From sequence record PQ613263: DNA of 64,000 nt; one strand, written 5' to 3'. The position numbers were made by a program, and so were the translations under genes. This DNA comes from Shigella phage Moonfish. Positions 21,655 through 51,851 of the stretch are shown here, in pieces. The notes beneath the pieces are model-generated. The model was given only the letters and a program-made list of their open reading frames with translations, did no database searches and was not told the origin of the DNA. Position 1 is the stretch's first letter. Each line of letters begins with the position of its first letter.

Positions 21655-21728
21655 TGCCCACTACTGGATTTGAACCAGTGACTTTCCGATTATTAGTCGG
21701 TTGCTTTCCCCGTCTAAGCTAAGCGGGC
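21655..21728 (-). tRNA. tRNA gene (manual fold); anticodon loop CUAAUAA, anticodon AAU if numbering is canonical (Ile-type; A34 is unusual)
   Basis: Folded by hand on minus strand: acceptor GCCCGCT/AGTGGGC (one G.U), D-stem GCTT/AAGC with GG in D-loop, anticodon stem CCGA/UCGG, perfect T-arm ACTGG-TTCAAAT-CCAGT, discriminator A. Confidence 0.6.
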
Positions 21729-44679: not shown

Positions 44680-45033
44680 TTACCAGATGGAATCTCGTTT
44701 ATGCCAGTACACCCCAGTTACTCCACTGGAATTAGTTACACGTTTCTTTTGGTTTCTACTGTTAGTTTTGCTGTCCACCAACCTAAAGTTACTTAATAGA
44801 TTGTTAACCCTATTATGGTCTATGTGGTCAACCTGCATTCCCTTTGGTATAGGTCCATTGTGCATTTCCCATATGACACGATGCACTTTGTAGCTTTTGC
44901 ACTTATAGTTAAAACACAGATACCCATCACCATTTAAAGAGCCAACCCTGCCCCCAGCAATGGCCCTTGAGGACAATGTAACTTTCCAGAATAGCTCACC
45001 ATTTTCATAAACGAGTATGTCATTCCAGTTCAT
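44680..45033 (-). CDS. free-standing HNH endonuclease (HNH_3-like) with truncated AP2-like tail
   Basis: 117 aa; GYLCF...HRVIWEMHNGPIPKGMQVDHIDHNRVNNLLSNFRLV; C-terminal GVTGVYWHKR AP2-like start then stop. Confidence 0.7.
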   Translation of the reverse strand: MNWNDILVYENGELFWKVTLSSRAIAGGRVGSLNGDGYLCFNYKCKSYKVHRVIWEMHNGPIPKGMQVDHIDHNRVNNLLSNFRLVDSKTNSRNQKKRVTNSSGVTGVYWHKRDSIW

Positions 45034-45036
45034 AGA

Positions 45037-46089
45037 TTATCCGTGAATGTAACGAGAGATATTGGCAGCAGCCTTACGCCATTCAGGGGTAGCCTGAATT
45101 TCTGGTAATGCTCTACCTACTGTACGGAAGTACAGAATCTTATGAGTGAACGTTTTAAAGCGTTCAATGTACTGAAGAACATCAGCGAAGTTTTCTTCAG
45201 TAGTTTTGTTAGCCAGATGGTTAACGGTAGCCCAACACAGGTTGTTATCTTCCGGTAGTGCACAGCCCATAGGGTCTTTGACTACTTTCTCAATCGTAAT
45301 CATACGATTGTATACCTGAGTGAACTGAACAAATTCTGTAGCCTTACCAGCAGTAACGTGGCCTGCATAATAGATAGAATCTTCATCAGGCAGAGCACCT
45401 TCTGGTCGGTTCTTGAGGTCTTTATTAACAAAGTCCCAGGTACGAGGGCAACAGAATGTTTTGTTCTTGTGGGCAGGATCGAAGTCATGCAGATAACCAG
45501 GGTTAGCATGTAAGAATGCAACCAGACGCTCGTCCCATTCCTGTGGAATCATTACGTCTTCAACAAAGATGTCGAAGTTAAGTTCCATTTCGAAGTGGAC
45601 AACTCGAGACTGCATTGCAGTACCTAGTGGGTTAACAATGGCACGGTCAGTAGCTTTGTTACCAGCACAGACAATCATCACATTAGGGTGAAGTTTTTTC
45701 TGACCAGTCATGCGGTCAAGAATTAGTTTGTATGCAGCAGCTACTACTTCTTTCTTAGCTGAGTTGAACTCATCAAGGAACAGGAGCCATCCATTGTAAC
45801 CTTCAGGGATTTCATCCCCTTCAATTGGGAACAAGTCAGCGAATGGAATAAACTCTGCACGGTCACCATTACGGAATGGTAGACCTGATAGGTCTTCTGG
45901 GGCAGAAGTAGACAGACGATGGTCAATCAGCTTCATACCAAATTCATCTGCAACAGAACGAATAATTGCAGATTTACCCATGCCTGGTGATGAAGTCAGG
46001 AACGGTACGTTACCTGCTTGTAAGGCACGGATAATAAAGTTACGGGCTTGACGTGTGTTACATACAGTCAAGGAGTCAATGCTTGCCAT
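45037..46089 (-). CDS. MoxR-like AAA+ ATPase
   Basis: 350 aa; Walker A SPGMGKS, Walker B LLFLDEFN. Confidence 0.7.
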   Translation of the reverse strand: MASIDSLTVCNTRQARNFIIRALQAGNVPFLTSSPGMGKSAIIRSVADEFGMKLIDHRLSTSAPEDLSGLPFRNGDRAEFIPFADLFPIEGDEIPEGYNGWLLFLDEFNSAKKEVVAAAYKLILDRMTGQKKLHPNVMIVCAGNKATDRAIVNPLGTAMQSRVVHFEMELNFDIFVEDVMIPQEWDERLVAFLHANPGYLHDFDPAHKNKTFCCPRTWDFVNKDLKNRPEGALPDEDSIYYAGHVTAGKATEFVQFTQVYNRMITIEKVVKDPMGCALPEDNNLCWATVNHLANKTTEENFADVLQYIERFKTFTHKILYFRTVGRALPEIQATPEWRKAAANISRYIHG

Positions 46090-46929: not shown

Positions 46930-47511
46930 TTACTCTTCAACAGTATCAGCGTAGTAGCCTACAGCCAGCAATGAGGTATCTTCTACCGTGGTTCCATTAG
47001 CATCAGTAACAATCACTTTATAAGTACCAGCAGAAGCAGCTGTTACGTTACTAAGGGTCAATGTTGCAGTAGCAGCAGATGCGTTATCGCCAGAATCAAT
47101 ATCAGCGAATACTGCACCATCAGTGTCTGCTTTGAATTGCCACTTATAAGTAAATGGTGCTTTACCACCTGCTACATCAATATGCCAGTTAATATCTTCA
47201 CCTTCGATGGCAGAGATTACACGAGGCAGTTTGGTAGCAATAGTCAGTCGTGGAGTAGCTTTCATATCAATAGAGATAGACTGCATATCCACGATGTTGT
47301 CAGGCCAGAAGCCTTCTTCAGCAGGGTTTTTAGCAGATCGTTTATACAACAGGTCACGTACACCGTGATAAATAACCAAGCTATCAGGGTAAGTGGCATC
47401 TGGATGTTCAAAAGTACCTACTTCCACGGAACCACCTGGAACACTGCCACCTGAATCAAGCACGGTAGCAACGTTGGTAGTTTTATTAAACGCAATCTTT
47501 AGGGTTGGCAT
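46930..47511 (-). CDS. Ig-like domain protein, capsid decoration protein candidate (N4 gp17-like position)
   Basis: 193 aa; C-terminal Ig-like signature (FTYKWQFK...GTYKVIVTDANG); gene sits right after the RNAP II genes. Confidence 0.5.
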   Translation of the reverse strand: MPTLKIAFNKTTNVATVLDSGGSVPGGSVEVGTFEHPDATYPDSLVIYHGVRDLLYKRSAKNPAEEGFWPDNIVDMQSISIDMKATPRLTIATKLPRVISAIEGEDINWHIDVAGGKAPFTYKWQFKADTDGAVFADIDSGDNASAATATLTLSNVTAASAGTYKVIVTDANGTTVEDTSLLAVGYYADTVEE

Positions 47512-47567
47512 GTATGTATCCTCTTGAGTAAATATGCCTAATCATTATGAAGGCTGATAAAAAAGAA

Positions 47568-47587
47568 AGCCACCCTTGAGGGTGGCT
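47568..47587 (-). terminator. intrinsic terminator (minus strand)
   Basis: AGCCACCC-ttga-GGGTGGCT hairpin with T-run on the minus strand. Confidence 0.55.
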
Positions 47588-47804
47588 AGTTGTTGATGTG
47601 GTAAATCCAGTAAGCTATCCAACCGGCTAATACAAAGCATCCGGCAGAGTACGCCCCATAGTAGCAATAGGCAAACTTGGATTTATGAGCGTTAACCATA
47701 GTGAGTATTACAATAGCAGATAAAACTATCAGTACGGTTTTAGTAATAACATCATAGATGTCTGGCATGTTGACTACCTCCAAGCAAAAAATAAAAGGCC
47801 TCAC
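47586..47804 (-). CDS. small membrane protein
   Basis: 72 aa with two hydrophobic segments. Confidence 0.45.
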   Translation of the reverse strand: MRPFIFCLEVVNMPDIYDVITKTVLIVLSAIVILTMVNAHKSKFAYCYYGAYSAGCFVLAGWIAYWIYHINN

Positions 47805-47822
47805 ACCCGAAGGTATGAGGCC
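47797..47822 (-). terminator. intrinsic terminator after RNAP II 3' exon
   Basis: GGCCTCA...TGAGGCC hairpin with TTTTATTTTTT on the minus strand. Confidence 0.5.
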
Positions 47823-47828
47823 AGTTTA

Positions 47829-47861
47829 TTAACTTAATGCATAATCCGTTTCAAGAATGTC
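47829..47861 (-). CDS. RNAP II large subunit, 3' mini-exon encoding the C-terminal foot (D)ILETDYALS
   Basis: Closely resembles the T7 RNAP C-terminus RDILESDFAFA; exact 3' junction inferred. Confidence 0.55.
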   Translation of the reverse strand, partial: DILETDYALS

Positions 47862-48988
47862 CTGCCAGAGGCTGTCATCCAGCTTACCCGCAGAGAACTC
47901 TTGTCCCAGTACCTGAGATAGGATGAAGCCCAGCAAGTCACTCTTAGCAATGTCAGATAGAATCTGATTGTACTGACGACGTAGGTCATTACCATAGTTA
48001 GGATGACAACGAAAACCATTAGTTAAACGAGTCGTTAGCTCGCCCTTACCTTCCATGATTAACATGAAAGCCATATGTAGCATCTGCTTGTTTACGAGCA
48101 AGCATTGCCTCCTCAAGTGTGTCGTACGTACCCAGACCGATCTGTTTGCGATTGACTGTGATGTGTGCCTGAAATCTACCAGAAGGCAGTATTCTCACAC
48201 CGTTCACTTTGCTTGAAGTATTACTAGATAAACTCATATTCATCTGGTTCTGTCTGCTGGTTACATTTCTCAAATTAGACCAACGATTGTCGTTTCTAGT
48301 ATGATTGATGTGGTCCACCTGGTTAGGTGTTTCCCCAGTTTCCATTATCCAGATTATTCGATGTAGTAAGTACTCTTTGCGGCCCAGGCTAACGGATAGA
48401 TACCCTTCTTTGTGAGGATACCCCACAATTGTTCCGGCTAACCCACTGGCAGAGTCATAACGATGAGTCACTAGCCCACTATCCCTGTCATACCTTAAAA
48501 CCTTCTGCAAAGATTCTTGGGTAATATTACCCAAGTTTATTATTAGGTTTTTACAGGTAGAGCATAGATGACCTATTGGACTCTTTCTAGCATCATAGAA
48601 GTTACAAACAAACTCATTAGAGCATTGCTTGCAACTACAGATAGCTGTGTACTTACCAGTTTTACGTAATATTTGAGAGTTATCTAACATATGGATTCCT
48701 TAGTAATTTTGCATACAATTTCAGATTGTATCCTAACCAAGGAAGTAAGTCTCCAATTTTCACTGGAGTATCGGACTATATCATCACCCACTAATCAGTG
48801 GGGCAAGGCGCTTGGGTGGTCACTTGACTCACCTACTCTACTCACATACGAAATGCTTTCGATAGTCTCTGAACCTTCCCTCATAGAGGGCTTGGCTGCT
48901 GATTGGCATATCCATAGGACTTAGCTTTCCAGCAATTCACCTTGTTTTCGACACGGATTACTCCGTGAAGGATCATTTATGTTTAATC
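47862..48988 (-). mobile_element. probable group I intron (~1.1 kb) in RNAP II large-subunit gene, carrying an HNH-AP2 endonuclease ORF
   Basis: Upstream ORF stops right after ...VLTVHD, 9-10 codons short of a T7-like C-terminus that is encoded 1.1 kb downstream in frame-compatible position; splice after caU with intron ending caG satisfies U/G group I rules. Confidence 0.55.
48046..48690 (-). CDS. HNH endonuclease with AP2 DNA-binding domain (intron-encoded)
   Basis: 214 aa; own AAGGAA RBS; HNH_3-like GYLSVSL...HRIIWIMETGETPNQVDHINHTRNDNRWSNLR; C-terminal AP2-like GVRILPSGRFQAHI...GTYDTLEEA. Confidence 0.8.
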   Translation of the reverse strand: MLDNSQILRKTGKYTAICSCKQCSNEFVCNFYDARKSPIGHLCSTCKNLIINLGNITQESLQKVLRYDRDSGLVTHRYDSASGLAGTIVGYPHKEGYLSVSLGRKEYLLHRIIWIMETGETPNQVDHINHTRNDNRWSNLRNVTSRQNQMNMSLSSNTSSKVNGVRILPSGRFQAHITVNRKQIGLGTYDTLEEAMLARKQADATYGFHVNHGR

Positions 48989-50014
48989 ATGTACAGTCAA
49001 TACAGGGAATGGCTTCTTAGGTAAAGTGTCCAGCATGTCTGCTACTACCTGACGGTCAACCATAGCAATAGTGCCTGGGTCGAGATAGTCGATAATAGAC
49101 ATAGATAAGAATCCAGACTTCTCGTAGTGTTCCCACAAGGTCTGTACCATTTCCATGTTACCTTCAATCTCCCCATACTCTGCTGGGCCTGTGTCGCAGA
49201 GTTCACGAACAGCAGCAACCAGGTTAGCATCGAAGTTACAACGACGCAGCATCTCGCGTACCACCATCCCATCAATAGAGTGGGTGATGTTAGCAGAGAG
49301 CATACGAGTCTTCTCTTCAGTACCCTGAACCATGCGGGTAATGTCGAATGGTTTACCTAAGAAGTTAACAGTCTGTACTTCTGGAACCATGACCTTAATG
49401 ACGGCATGGAAGTTGTCAGACAATACCCATACGTAACGGTTAGCATCCGGGTTACCACATTGCAGTAAGAACTTGTTCAATGCCCAAGGCCCACTAGCAA
49501 CAGTTTCCATTACATTCTCAAAAGTCTTGAGACGGATACCCTCACCGAATACTTCTTTAGGCTTAGCTTCTGAACCGTAGAATGCAGTCATAACTGCCTG
49601 CTTAGTGTCACTACGCTTAATACGAGATGCTTCACCAAGGATGTCCAACATCTTGTGATAGATAACTGTATAAGCATCACGACGTAATGGCTTACCGTTT
49701 TCACCCATGTAGTTAACTACGTTACACAGTTCAGCAGCAGAACGGTCACCAGTCAGGCAAGCCAGTAACTGCAAGCCTGATGATGTAGCATCCAGAGCTA
49801 CGGCATAGCCAATAGGCTTACCGGCTTTCATATCTTTCCATGCGTTTACACCTGCATAGAACAATGCGGATTCTTCAGCTTCATCTACCAGATTAAGCAG
49901 GTTAGCTTCGTTTTCATCGAACCAGCTAATACGTTCATCCCATGTTTTCTTATCCAGACCCATGTTATTCGCAATATCAATCTTTAAATATTCTTTCGCT
50001 GTGAAAAGCTGCAT
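48989..50014 (-). CDS. phage RNAP II large subunit (N4 gp16-like, T7-like catalytic half), 5' exon
   Basis: LDATSSGLQLLA (T7 motif A FDGSCSGIQHFSA), KQAVMTAFYGS (motif B), ITHSIDG (T7 H784 region), RELCDTG (motif C). Confidence 0.8.
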
Positions 50015-50015
50015 C

Positions 50016-50597
50016 TTAAGCTCCTAGTTTCCACGTATAGCCATATGCTTGTGCATATGTACCAATAATTGATTGTTTAATGTTTGATGGTATTCCATTT
50101 ACACTGCGTGCTGCTGCACTCAGTGAATGGAATGTCTGGATGTAAATACCATCCAGTGTGTATTGCTCTACAGGGATAGCAGATTTGGTATTAATACCGT
50201 TGATTGCATCAGAGTAATACCTTCTTACATTGGCGTTTACCGTAACAACACGAATGTTATCCAGTGAGTAACCTTTATAGTCATCCAGCCTGTCAAGGCT
50301 TGGCTTCAGGTTGGTTGGGTAATCCTCTATTACCCATTTATCATACAGAGTGTGAAACTCTTTCTTTGATAACACCCATTGTTCTAGTTCCTCTTTAGTA
50401 AAAGTAACAGGATTAAACCCTTTCTTCTTGGTTCTGCTTACGCAACCGGAGTACATTTGATTAATGACTCCTTGTTTGGAATGGATAAAACGTTTCACAC
50501 AGTCTTTACAGTCTGCTCTTACACCCTGTTTACCTGTGGACTGTTTATTGAACATGTCCAGAGGCAAGTTCTGCTTACATACTGAACATGTCTTCAT
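50016..50597 (-). CDS. homing-endonuclease-like protein (Cys4 zinc ribbon + C-terminal NUMOD1-like DNA-binding motif), free-standing between RNAP II subunit genes
   Basis: 193 aa; CSVCK...CKDC; C-terminal FHSLSAAARSVNGIPSNIKQSI...GYTWK resembles DNA-binding tails of GIY-YIG/HNH homing endonucleases; no catalytic motif identified. Confidence 0.45.
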   Translation of the reverse strand: MKTCSVCKQNLPLDMFNKQSTGKQGVRADCKDCVKRFIHSKQGVINQMYSGCVSRTKKKGFNPVTFTKEELEQWVLSKKEFHTLYDKWVIEDYPTNLKPSLDRLDDYKGYSLDNIRVVTVNANVRRYYSDAINGINTKSAIPVEQYTLDGIYIQTFHSLSAAARSVNGIPSNIKQSIIGTYAQAYGYTWKLGA

Positions 50598-50598
50598 A

Positions 50599-51417
50599 TT
50601 AATCCTCGTTTACTAACTCTTTATCTGCGAACTCTATAACTGCCTTATTGTAAGAGGTTCCCGCATAGTTAATATGGTATCCACATGCATATGTTCTTCC
50701 CCTCTTATCAAATTTATGTGCTAGTGAGAAGTTATTACCTTCTTTGGTCACTAACTCCATTACTTCCTTAGCTGTACGGCTGTACTTCTCAAAGGCTTTA
50801 ACTCGTTTCTCATAGTCCTGACGGGTTTCACCCTCTTTGGGTTTATCCATGTTAGGACGAGAGTCTTTTACATAGTTGGCAACGTCCCAGTTAATACAGA
50901 GTCGTTGGTTGTTCATACGGTTAATGTGGTCAAGGCAGACGTCCATCTCATGATGGTTCTTCTTGAGGATGATTGAGCCTTTAGATTCATAGTAGCCAGT
51001 GTCCCGATTAGTCAGGACTGGCTTAGGCTTACTGACGATAGGTAATGGATACTGGAATGCCTCCAGTTCCATCTGAACATCTTCACTAATCTCATAAATA
51101 ACACCGAACTTGTCGATGGTAGGGTCATAGTTGAAGCAGTCATTCTCTGCCATCTTATACAGACAGTCAGCGATATACTGAGCGTCATCTGAGTGACTCA
51201 TGAGAGAGCCAATCATAGTCTGAATGTCAGCACGTTTATGTAGGGCAATCTGCACCATTGCATCAATGAGCAGCTTATAATCAATTTCTAAATAGGCGGC
51301 GAATGCCTTAAAGTCAATTTCTTTGGAGTCCTCAAATTCCTTCCTCATGCGAGGGAGTAATTGGTTTTTGTTGAAAAGGATTTCAAGTTGCTTCTGATGT
51401 TCAATAGATGAGTACAT
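50599..51417 (-). CDS. phage RNAP II small subunit (N4 gp15-like, T7-like N-terminal half)
   Basis: 272 aa; KFDKRGRTYA matches the T7 RNAP DWRGRVYA motif; RBS AGGAG; directly upstream of the large subunit. Confidence 0.7.
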   Translation of the reverse strand: MYSSIEHQKQLEILFNKNQLLPRMRKEFEDSKEIDFKAFAAYLEIDYKLLIDAMVQIALHKRADIQTMIGSLMSHSDDAQYIADCLYKMAENDCFNYDPTIDKFGVIYEISEDVQMELEAFQYPLPIVSKPKPVLTNRDTGYYESKGSIILKKNHHEMDVCLDHINRMNNQRLCINWDVANYVKDSRPNMDKPKEGETRQDYEKRVKAFEKYSRTAKEVMELVTKEGNNFSLAHKFDKRGRTYACGYHINYAGTSYNKAVIEFADKELVNED

Positions 51418-51450
51418 CGCATATTCTCCTAAATGTTATTAATAACCAAA

Positions 51451-51465
51451 AGCTGCGGAGCAGCT
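51451..51465 (-). promoter_or_regulatory. conserved GGA-triloop hairpin, candidate vRNAP-type early promoter
   Basis: AGCTGC-GGA-GCAGCT (6-bp stem, 3-nt loop) ~40 nt upstream of the RNAP II small-subunit start; identical 17-mer recurs at 54508-54524. Confidence 0.45.
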
Positions 51466-51470
51466 ATTAC

Positions 51471-51851
51471 CTAAAAGGTTCCCCAGTAGATATAGTCATC
51501 TCCCAGGATAGGTTTCCAGGCTTCGTCAAACATGACGTTGCCTGTAGCATTTGCAAACATAGGGGCAATGTCCTTGTCTTCATAACCAGCCAGTCCACAA
51601 CCAATGCGTGTTACTTTAAAGTCCCACTCTGGGTGTGCTGCTGCATACAGGATGAATGCTGCTACAAATTTCTCAATATCCTCTAAGGACATAGTCTTGA
51701 TTGACTGGTTTTTGGTTGGGATTGCATAGCTGCAACCATAATGGCCTACGCCCATACCCCAACGAGCACCGTGCTTCTTATATGCAACTTTCGCTGCACC
51801 AGCACCGTGACGGCCTGCTAAATTACTACCGAATACTAATATCTCTTTCAT
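51471..51851 (-). CDS. hypothetical protein with Gly-rich loop after first beta-strand (Rossmann/SLOG- or macro-like?)
   Basis: 126 aa; ILVFGSNLAGRHGAGAAKVA motif. Confidence 0.45.
   Translation of the reverse strand: MKEILVFGSNLAGRHGAGAAKVAYKKHGARWGMGVGHYGCSYAIPTKNQSIKTMSLEDIEKFVAAFILYAAAHPEWDFKVTRIGCGLAGYEDKDIAPMFANATGNVMFDEAWKPILGDDYIYWGTF

Follow-up and report, generated by a model that had tools for sequence, protein, structure and literature searches.

Gene 16 of Shigella phage Moonfish, which encodes the large subunit of RNA polymerase II (RNAP II, or RNAP2), is very probably interrupted by a mobile group I intron of ordinary type, which contains a homing endonuclease gene and is inserted at the codons for motif C of the polymerase; splicing of this intron is predicted. 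The letters read were those of a 64,000-nucleotide stretch of this phage (record PQ613263), which we call the window and to which all positions refer; gene 16 lies on its minus strand. In a megablast search, positions 47500-51500 matched 63 phage records, nearly all of them from Escherichia and Shigella N4-like phages of the genus Gamaleyavirus (the G7C group), with a best identity of 90% and a coverage of at most 69% of the query in all 63 records. Judged by its sequence, the window is that of a G7C-like (Gamaleyavirus, N4-like) coliphage. An earlier reading of positions 47829-50014, referred to below as the sequence-only reading, had already proposed that a group I intron with an endonuclease gene divides gene 16. 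The element belongs to a well-known kind and leaves the knowledge of group I introns unchanged: a homing-endonuclease intron at the best-conserved codons of a phage polymerase is a textbook situation.

Exons, splice junctions and the predicted product of gene 16

The open reading frame (ORF) at 50014..48983 on the minus strand encodes 343 amino acids, ends in PFPVLTVHD and is closed by TAA, and the sequence DILETDYALS followed by a stop is encoded at 47861..47829. Both had been pointed out in the sequence-only reading, and both were confirmed from the ORFs. The frame of DILETDYALS is open upstream, where it reads CFRCHPNYGNDLRRQYNQILSDIAKSDLLGFILSQVLGQEFSAGKLDDSLWQDILETDYALS and was also read as ...GFRCHPNYGNDLRRQYNQILSDIAKSDLLGFILSQVLGQEFSAGKLDDSLWQDILETDYALS. 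The gp16 proteins of the intron-less phages G7C and PhAPEC5, which are 405 amino acids long each, read ...PFPVMTVHDCFRCHPNYGND...DILETDYALS.

Comparison with these intron-less genes indicated where the junctions lie. On the 5′ side, the window follows them through CATGAT-T (U48985) and then departs (AAACAT...), and on the 3′ side the match reaches back to G48016 (GTTTTCGTTGTCAT), G48017 being mismatched. With respect to G7C and PhAPEC5, the predicted junction is U48985/G48016 (CATGATT/GTTTTCG), without ambiguity. The Rfam alignment of the ribozyme independently put the U·G wobble of P1 on U48985, the same U that was indicated by the homologue comparison. The intron so delimited covers 968 nucleotides (48017..48984, minus strand), from A48984 to the omega G at G48017, and its removal exactly restores the frame of gene 16. 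A cryptic 3′ end at 48751, where the Rfam model ends in GGAG with a G that could pass for an omega G, was rejected: the sequence downstream of it is not gp16-like, and exon 2 starts at 48016.

Exon 1 (48985..50014, minus strand) consists of 343 codons plus U48985, the first base of codon 344, and ends in VLTVHD plus U. Its product has a Pfam RNA_pol match and is colinear with gp16 of G7C and PhAPEC5 and with residues 1-343 of the N4 RNAP2 (PDB 6DT7_B). Exon 2 (47829..48016, minus strand; 188 nucleotides) contributes the last two bases of codon 344 (Cys), 61 codons and the stop, supplying the 62 residues (C)FRCHPNYGND...DILETDYALS. This protein segment is identical to the C-termini of the intron-less G7C and PhAPEC5 gp16, with 90-97% identity at the DNA level, and it aligns with residues 343-404 of the N4 RNAP2. 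Joining 50014..48985 to 48016..47829 yields a 405-residue gp16 that aligns without gaps with its G7C and PhAPEC5 counterparts (...VLTVHD/CFRCHPNYGND...DILETDYALS). The predicted ligated-exon junction is ...GTACATGATT joined to GTTTTCGTTGT, and the predicted tryptic junction peptide of the spliced gp16 is PFPVLTVHDCFR.

Residues 1-405 of the spliced product matched residues 1-404 of 6DT7_B with an E value of 2.6e-186, including the junction sequence VLTVHDCFRC, and this end-to-end alignment extends to the N4 C-terminus (...LETEYALS). Only the spliced product resembles N4 gp16 over its entire length, with the T7-like motifs A, B and C and the C-terminal tail; the unspliced ORF lacks residues 344-405. 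This agrees with the proposal in the sequence-only reading that a full-length RNAP II large subunit would require splicing, as the spliced product alone spans 405 residues. Unlike the window, N4 has no intron in gene 16, and a comparison published in Virol J in 2013 recorded N4 as free of any of these selfish elements (PMC3670811).

The intron, as placed here, sits one base past the codon for the Asp of motif C (His-Asp), not just before the C-terminal 'foot'. Motif C is consequently divided, with His-Asp closing exon 1 and CF... encoded in exon 2. A BLAST comparison with the C-terminus of T7 RNA polymerase aligned VHDCF with IHDSF (motif C, H811-D812), ANITHSIDG with PNFVHSQDG and DILETDYALS with DILESDFAFA, although this was a weak match (E 0.079) with an approximate T7 query. 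The sequence-only reading had motif C lying wholly within the first ORF and about ten codons lost to a 1.1-kb insertion, DILETDYALS being encoded as a 30-nucleotide mini-exon. The ORF ends on His-Asp, however, and judged by the intron-less G7C and PhAPEC5 gp16 the loss amounts to 62 codons, the insertion to 968 nucleotides (48984..48017) and the second exon to 188 nucleotides.

Ribozyme structure and the intron-encoded endonuclease

The proposed group I nature of the intron was borne out by an Rfam search. RF00028 matched positions 48994..48751 (minus strand) with 91 bits, against a gathering score of 50, and an E value of 3.5e-23, covering model positions 1-253 without truncation. This was the sole intron match in the window. 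The ribozyme core thus aligned (48751..48994, minus strand) contains P1 to P9. P1 is formed by 48990-48984 and the internal guide at 48975-48969, with the wobble pair U48985·G48974. The same alignment assigned P2 to 48967-48952, P3 to 48945-48938 with 48811-48804, P4-P5 to 48935-48896, P6 to 48895-48874, P7 to stretches within 48873-48863 and 48786-48773, P8 to 48802-48787 and P9 to 48768-48751. A P10 of four base pairs, read from the sequence, is possible between the exon 2 start GUUU and AAAU at 48978-48975, directly 5′ of the guide G.

P7 and P3′ are separated by an insertion of 50 nucleotides with two hairpins, P7.1 (48862-48848) and P7.2 (48833-48815), the latter of which covaries. Such hairpins at this position are typical of the subgroup IA introns of phages (T-even phages), and on this criterion the gene 16 intron may be of subgroup IA. 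The introns in T4 nrdD (sunY, with I-TevII), td and nrdB are subgroup IA phage introns with P7.1/P7.2 and a homing endonuclease ORF, and in sunY the ORF comes after the catalytic core, and a short 3′-terminal domain sets the distant 3′ splice site. I-TevI and I-TevII, however, are GIY-YIG enzymes and not of the HNH-AP2 type, and the T4 host genes differ from gene 16. Group I introns with HNH endonucleases are known from the DNA polymerase genes of SPO1 and SP82 (I-HmuI and I-HmuII) and of T7-like phages, where they likewise break into conserved polymerase motifs; from the gene 16 intron they differ in their target gene and in the lineage of their endonuclease.

The consensus fold of six ribozymes contained 50 pairs, 28 of which showed compensatory changes on both sides, and these changes were distributed over P2, P3, P4/P5, P6, P7.2, P8 and P9. 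Two of these six sequences are nearly identical, and the set includes the ORF-less intron 1 of Pseudoalteromonas phage pYD6-A. Furthermore, the internal guide follows the exon end, with GAUC(C)U facing AUGAUU in the window, GGUC facing AUGACU in Pseudomonas phage ZC08 and in L012, a locus from the IMG/VR database, and GCGC facing AUGCGU in Erwinia phage MIF8 and pYD6-A. Since the match of 91 bits extends over the full model and the helices covary across genera, the ribozyme fold appears to be under selection.

At its other end the intron has a 3′-terminal domain of 29 nucleotides (48017..48045, minus strand), made up of a P9.2-like hairpin at 48042-48028 with the loop CUAACGA, followed by UUUAACUAAUG up to the omega G48017. 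The tail folded into a hairpin in all 11 family members, with differing stems, a conserved (G)UARCG loop, 8-10 further nucleotides and a final G. For this comparison the tails were folded one by one, as MAFFT had shifted three of the sequences by one column. In pYD6-A, the ORF-less intron 1 has UAACUAAUG at its end, the same tail as that of the window intron, which supports the assigned 3′ splice site. It likewise supports the idea that the ribozyme existed first and acquired the endonuclease ORF in its 3′ periphery.

The intact endonuclease gene (48046..48690, minus strand; 214 amino acids) follows P9 and a P9.1-like hairpin and lies outside the core. Its product has an N-terminal CxC-x2-C...C-x2-C zinc ribbon, followed by an HNH_3 domain at residues 107-150 (Pfam, 55 bits, cut-off 24.8) and, at residues 160-198, by an AP2-like DNA-binding domain, and it belongs to PHROG 99 (HNH endonuclease, E 2e-56). 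Of the HNH-AP2 architecture that had been claimed for it, the HNH part is firm. The AP2 match, with 22.6 bits (E 1.3e-4), stays below the cut-off of 33.3 bits, although four of five endonuclease homologues do match AP2 (best E 8.3e-6). Residues H110, D126, H127, N139, N148 and N151 and four cysteines are invariant in five homologues. The enzyme presumably cuts intron-less alleles of gene 16 in a homing reaction, and at its presumed target the intron-less G7C gene reads ...ACTGTACATGACTGCTTCCGTTGT....

Between P9 and the start codon of the endonuclease gene lies the P9.1-like hairpin (48696..48744, minus strand; RNA fold -15 kcal/mol, z -1.85). In its outer stem UUCCUUGGU pairs with ACUAAGGAA, which holds the ribosome-binding site of the endonuclease gene, AAGGA being paired with UUCCUU; the fold is identical in phage vB_EcoP-ZQ2 (hereafter ZQ2). 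By burying this site, the hairpin might conceivably damp translation of the endonuclease, and translational damping is known for T4 intron endonucleases. A scan for a promoter specific to the endonuclease gene gave none above the shuffled expectation.

From these features the following sequence of events can be proposed. Gene 16 would be transcribed as one pre-mRNA. The 5′ splice site falls within the stop codon of the unspliced ORF (GAU U/AA, 48983-48985, minus strand), and a ribosome on unspliced RNA would halt at this UAA, before the ribozyme. The core would fold just downstream, and its guide would form P1 with the end of exon 1 (AUGAUU; U48985·G48974) and afterwards P10 with GUUU at the beginning of exon 2. 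Guanosine-initiated splicing would excise 48984..48017 and restore the codon U/GU (Cys), giving a 405-residue gp16 with motif C and the C-terminal 'foot' intact. The endonuclease, encoded between the P9.1-like and P9.2-like hairpins, would cut the intron-less gene 16 of co-infecting relatives, and repair would copy the intron in. If so, this N4-like phage would need a ribozyme reaction for its early-to-middle switch. The intron also provides an endonuclease that is a candidate for recognising the coding sequence of motif C specifically; when therapeutic G7C-like phages infect together, such an enzyme could skew inheritance.

Related introns and competing explanations

The whole element was found in one other phage, ZQ2, with 94.2% nucleotide identity over all 968 nucleotides and identical junctions (CATGATT/AAACAT... 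and ...CTAATG/GTTTT). ZQ2 accounts for both of the records, among the 63 that match the region, that carry the intron. The ribozyme core also matched MIF8 and, with 72-80% identity over 117-184 nucleotides, sequence inside the DNA polymerase genes of Felix O1-like phages. The Felixounavirus introns are likewise group I introns that interrupt conserved polymerase motifs, but the matches are limited to the core and do not extend to the endonuclease gene or the 3′ tail, and the target gene and endonuclease lineage differ.

When the endonuclease was used as a tblastn query, proteins with 45-48% identity were found in MIF8, ZC08 and pYD6-A, all Schitoviridae and each of another genus. In these three phages a full-model group I match (82-94 bits) starts from the end of a shortened 'RNA polymerase' coding sequence and is followed by the ORF and exon 2. 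Like the window, ZQ2, MIF8, ZC08 and pYD6-A thus carry, at RNAP2 motif C, a group I ribozyme, a zinc-ribbon/HNH/AP2-like ORF and a short hairpin tail; the insertion in MIF8 and pYD6-A differs in lying 3 nucleotides further downstream (GCG U/UC). The intron is not annotated in the respective records (NC_070874/MW630115 for ZQ2, PP700702 for MIF8, NC_048639 for ZC08 and NC_020849 for pYD6-A), where RNAP2 appears as a truncated coding sequence or as two separate 'RNA polymerase' coding sequences. Independently of this, the linear ZQ2 record is also cut within gene 16. This essential middle-gene polymerase subunit is accordingly recorded as truncated or in two pieces in Moonfish and in at least four GenBank phages, and its product would be the spliced protein, predicted here to have 405 residues. 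The paper on ZC08 mentions merely 'an HE inserted within RNAP2' (PMC5418858). Apart from this remark, an intron at RNAP2 motif C was described in none of the papers found, and the literature searched yielded no paper that combines 'group I intron' with Schitoviridae.

An endonuclease alignment, scanned against IMG/VR, identified ten full-length relatives, L007-L016, L007 being ZC08. In nine of the ten loci gp16-like coding sequence precedes the endonuclease gene; L010 gave no tblastn match. The upstream gp16 match ends at or just past the His-Asp of motif C in L007, L009, L012 and L014-L016, and in L008, L011 and L013 it stops near residue 260; for these three the His-Asp and the junction were placed by pattern search and inspection of the reading frame. 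An Rfam group I match lies directly upstream of the endonuclease gene in seven of the nine loci searched (L008-L016). In seven inspected homologues (L003-L006, L009, L012 and L013) the 5′ splice site likewise falls within the in-frame stop codon of the unspliced ORF, which reads U/AA or U/GA.

The insertions fall on three bonds within 4 nucleotides at motif C, and the guide fits the local exon end each time. The first bond follows base 1 of the codon after His-Asp (GAY U/GU) and is used in the window, ZQ2, ZC08 and L012; the second follows base 3 of that codon (AGU/UUC; L014-L016); and the third follows base 1 of the next codon, that of Phe (xxx U/UY; MIF8, pYD6-A intron 2, L008, L009, L011 and L013). 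The homologous introns at shifted positions are located at 2480-3460 in L004, at 1677-2680 in L006 and at about 2140-3200 in L008, L009, L011, L013 and L014-L016. A single lineage of intron and HNH-AP2 endonuclease may have colonised RNAP2 motif C across many Schitoviridae genera by re-targeting or 'sliding', with an endonuclease that recognises the motif rather than homing strictly to one position; we give this view even chances, with separate acquisitions as the alternative.

The RNAP2 gene of pYD6-A contains a second group I intron, the ORF-less intron 1 (L006 1093-1392, 74 bits), at ...SLAA/NVIHSIDG, beside the equivalent of the T7 H784 motif. The IMG/VR contig L010 contains two group I matches as well, one of them at 1244-1542.

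A gene 16 intron has been described before in the same phage genus. Sz33 and N4G2, G7C-like phages from horses, carry an insertion of about 800 base pairs in gene 16 with a homing-nuclease ORF, and its splicing was demonstrated by reverse transcription PCR and a junction peptide (bioRxiv 10.1101/542787, 2019). Like the window intron it interrupts the gene for the RNAP II large subunit, but its site lies within QAVMTAFYGSEAK (motif B). This sequence is uninterrupted in the window, and the window intron is therefore a different one. In addition, the authors reported no significant Rfam match for the Sz33/N4G2 element (10.1101/542787), as opposed to the 91 bits obtained here. Motif C would thus be a second gene 16 intron site beside the experimentally shown one at motif B. 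Together with the published motif B intron, there are at least three intron sites in the RNAP2 genes of Schitoviridae, all of them in catalytic motifs.

Several points weigh against our interpretation of gene 16. Both splicing and endonuclease activity are read from sequence alone. P1 is short, with six pairs including one U×C mismatch, and P10 merely comprises 4 base pairs; the T7 alignment that identifies motif C is the weak BLAST match mentioned above (E 0.079), made with the approximate T7 query; and the AP2 match of the endonuclease is under the Pfam cut-off. Moreover, in the window and in ZQ2 the frame of exon 2 is open upstream through three in-frame ATGs in the 3′ end of the endonuclease gene, and the annotators of ZQ2 called a separate coding sequence for exon 2.

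The last two points favour an alternative in which the insertion is not spliced and gene 16 is a gene in pieces: gp15 would assemble with a 343-residue protein and with a C-terminal fragment whose translation begins at an ATG within the 3′ end of the endonuclease gene. RNAP II itself is a T7-like polymerase that is split by nature, and the same phage group offers a precedent in the insertion in the DNA polymerase gene (gene 39) of 10Gb, which remains unspliced and yields two polypeptides (10.1101/542787). With Sz33 and N4G2 spliced and 10Gb unspliced, both outcomes occur in the G7C-like group. For gene 16 of the window, however, we regard a gene in pieces as improbable. The full-model ribozyme match and the covariation of its helices across genera argue for selection on the fold, and the guide tracks the exon sequence in the homologues. 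Independent translation of exon 2 was judged unlikely, as the three ATGs lack a ribosome-binding site and as exon 2 of MIF8, ZC08 and pYD6-A is untranslatable on its own, its frame running upstream into a stop without meeting an ATG. A gene in pieces would also part His-Asp from Cys-Phe within motif C.

Less probable still is a decaying element, with an inactive intron or endonuclease and a gene 16 that is a pseudogene or marginally functional. Homing elements do cycle through decay, and the intron is rare among the sequenced Gamaleyaviruses, being known from ZQ2 alone among the matching records. Against this, the endonuclease ORF is of full length and has kept all invariant residues, the ribozyme is complete, and middle transcription of N4 depends on RNAP II.

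The junctions of the sequence-only reading, with an intron of about 1.1 kb from after U48989 to G47862 and a second exon that encodes DILETDYALS only (...VLTVHDILETDYALS), have next to no probability: they are in frame, they satisfy the bare rule of a U before and a G at the end of the intron, and the DILETDYALS tail resembles the T7 C-terminus, but they would remove 52 residues (CFRCHPNYGND...SLWQ) which recur unchanged in gp16 of G7C and PhAPEC5 and also occur in the N4 RNAP2 structure, the stretch 48016-47862 matches the intron-less gp16 exon with 90-97% identity at the DNA level, the Rfam P1 wobble falls on U48985 and not on U48989, and the conserved tail hairpin with the omega G lies at 48042-48017, the equivalent position in every family member. 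The alignment with N4 gp16 homologues contradicts these junctions as well, placing the boundary at motif C, and together the homologues and the Rfam P1 point to U48985 and G48017 instead. The sequence-only reading had missed P1 because the splice site was sought 4 nucleotides upstream of the true one.

Presumed mobility of the intron and genomic context

The intron is 94% identical to that of ZQ2, whereas identity is only 76% over the 256 nucleotides of exon just upstream and 58-81% in the genes that follow gene 16. This difference, and the patchy occurrence of the intron, indirectly support its mobility. A sliding identity profile against G7C and PhAPEC5 further delimited a divergent tract of about 240 nucleotides in exon 1, directly upstream of the intron (48995..49234, minus strand). 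Here identity drops from 92-98% to 43-70%, to recover to about 90% or more at the last few bases of exon 1 and beyond. In the database, ECBP1 matched this tract best (79.6%), and no phage exceeded 80% over its whole length. The pattern is consistent with a recombination or co-conversion-like tract. We did not accept it as proof of co-conversion, as the intron-less phages ECBP1, Bp4 and St11Ph5 bear other versions of the segment, 77-80% identical, and the segment is mosaic regardless of the intron.

On the minus strand, gene 15 is followed by a free-standing homing endonuclease gene and then by gene 16. Gene 15 (50599..51417, minus strand) encodes the RNAP II small subunit of 272 amino acids and is the counterpart of G7C gp15, annotated as RNAP1 subunit B. 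The free-standing endonuclease gene between genes 15 and 16 (50016..50597, minus strand; 193 amino acids) has a Pfam NUMOD1 match, falls into PHROG 1035 (endonuclease VII-like) and is the counterpart of G7C gp15.1, annotated as a putative HNH homing endonuclease. It is part of the context and lies outside the gene 16 intron. Where G7C and the window carry this gp15.1-type gene, PhAPEC5 has merely a 53-residue ORF.

Directly after the gene 16 stop, a consensus scan matched a terminator-like hairpin of 11 pairs followed by TTTTATTTTT (47797..47822, minus strand). The ORF 3′ of gene 16 (47586-47804, minus strand) is the counterpart of G7C gp16.1 and belongs to PHROG 12530, the family match beginning at residue 13. 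Its true start is probably the ATG at 47768, which is preceded by GGAGG, and not the GTG at 47804, which overlaps the terminator-like hairpin.

A third HNH_3 ORF of the window (44680-45033, minus strand; 117 amino acids) adjoins an ATPase gene (45037-46089). Like the intron endonuclease it belongs to PHROG 99, and it is 38% identical to that enzyme. It stops exactly at the expected start of the AP2 domain (...GVTGVYWHKRDSIW-stop) and may be a truncated or decaying free-standing endonuclease. The sole other Rfam family match in the window was a tRNA gene at 21655-21728 (minus strand; RF00005, 63.8 bits).

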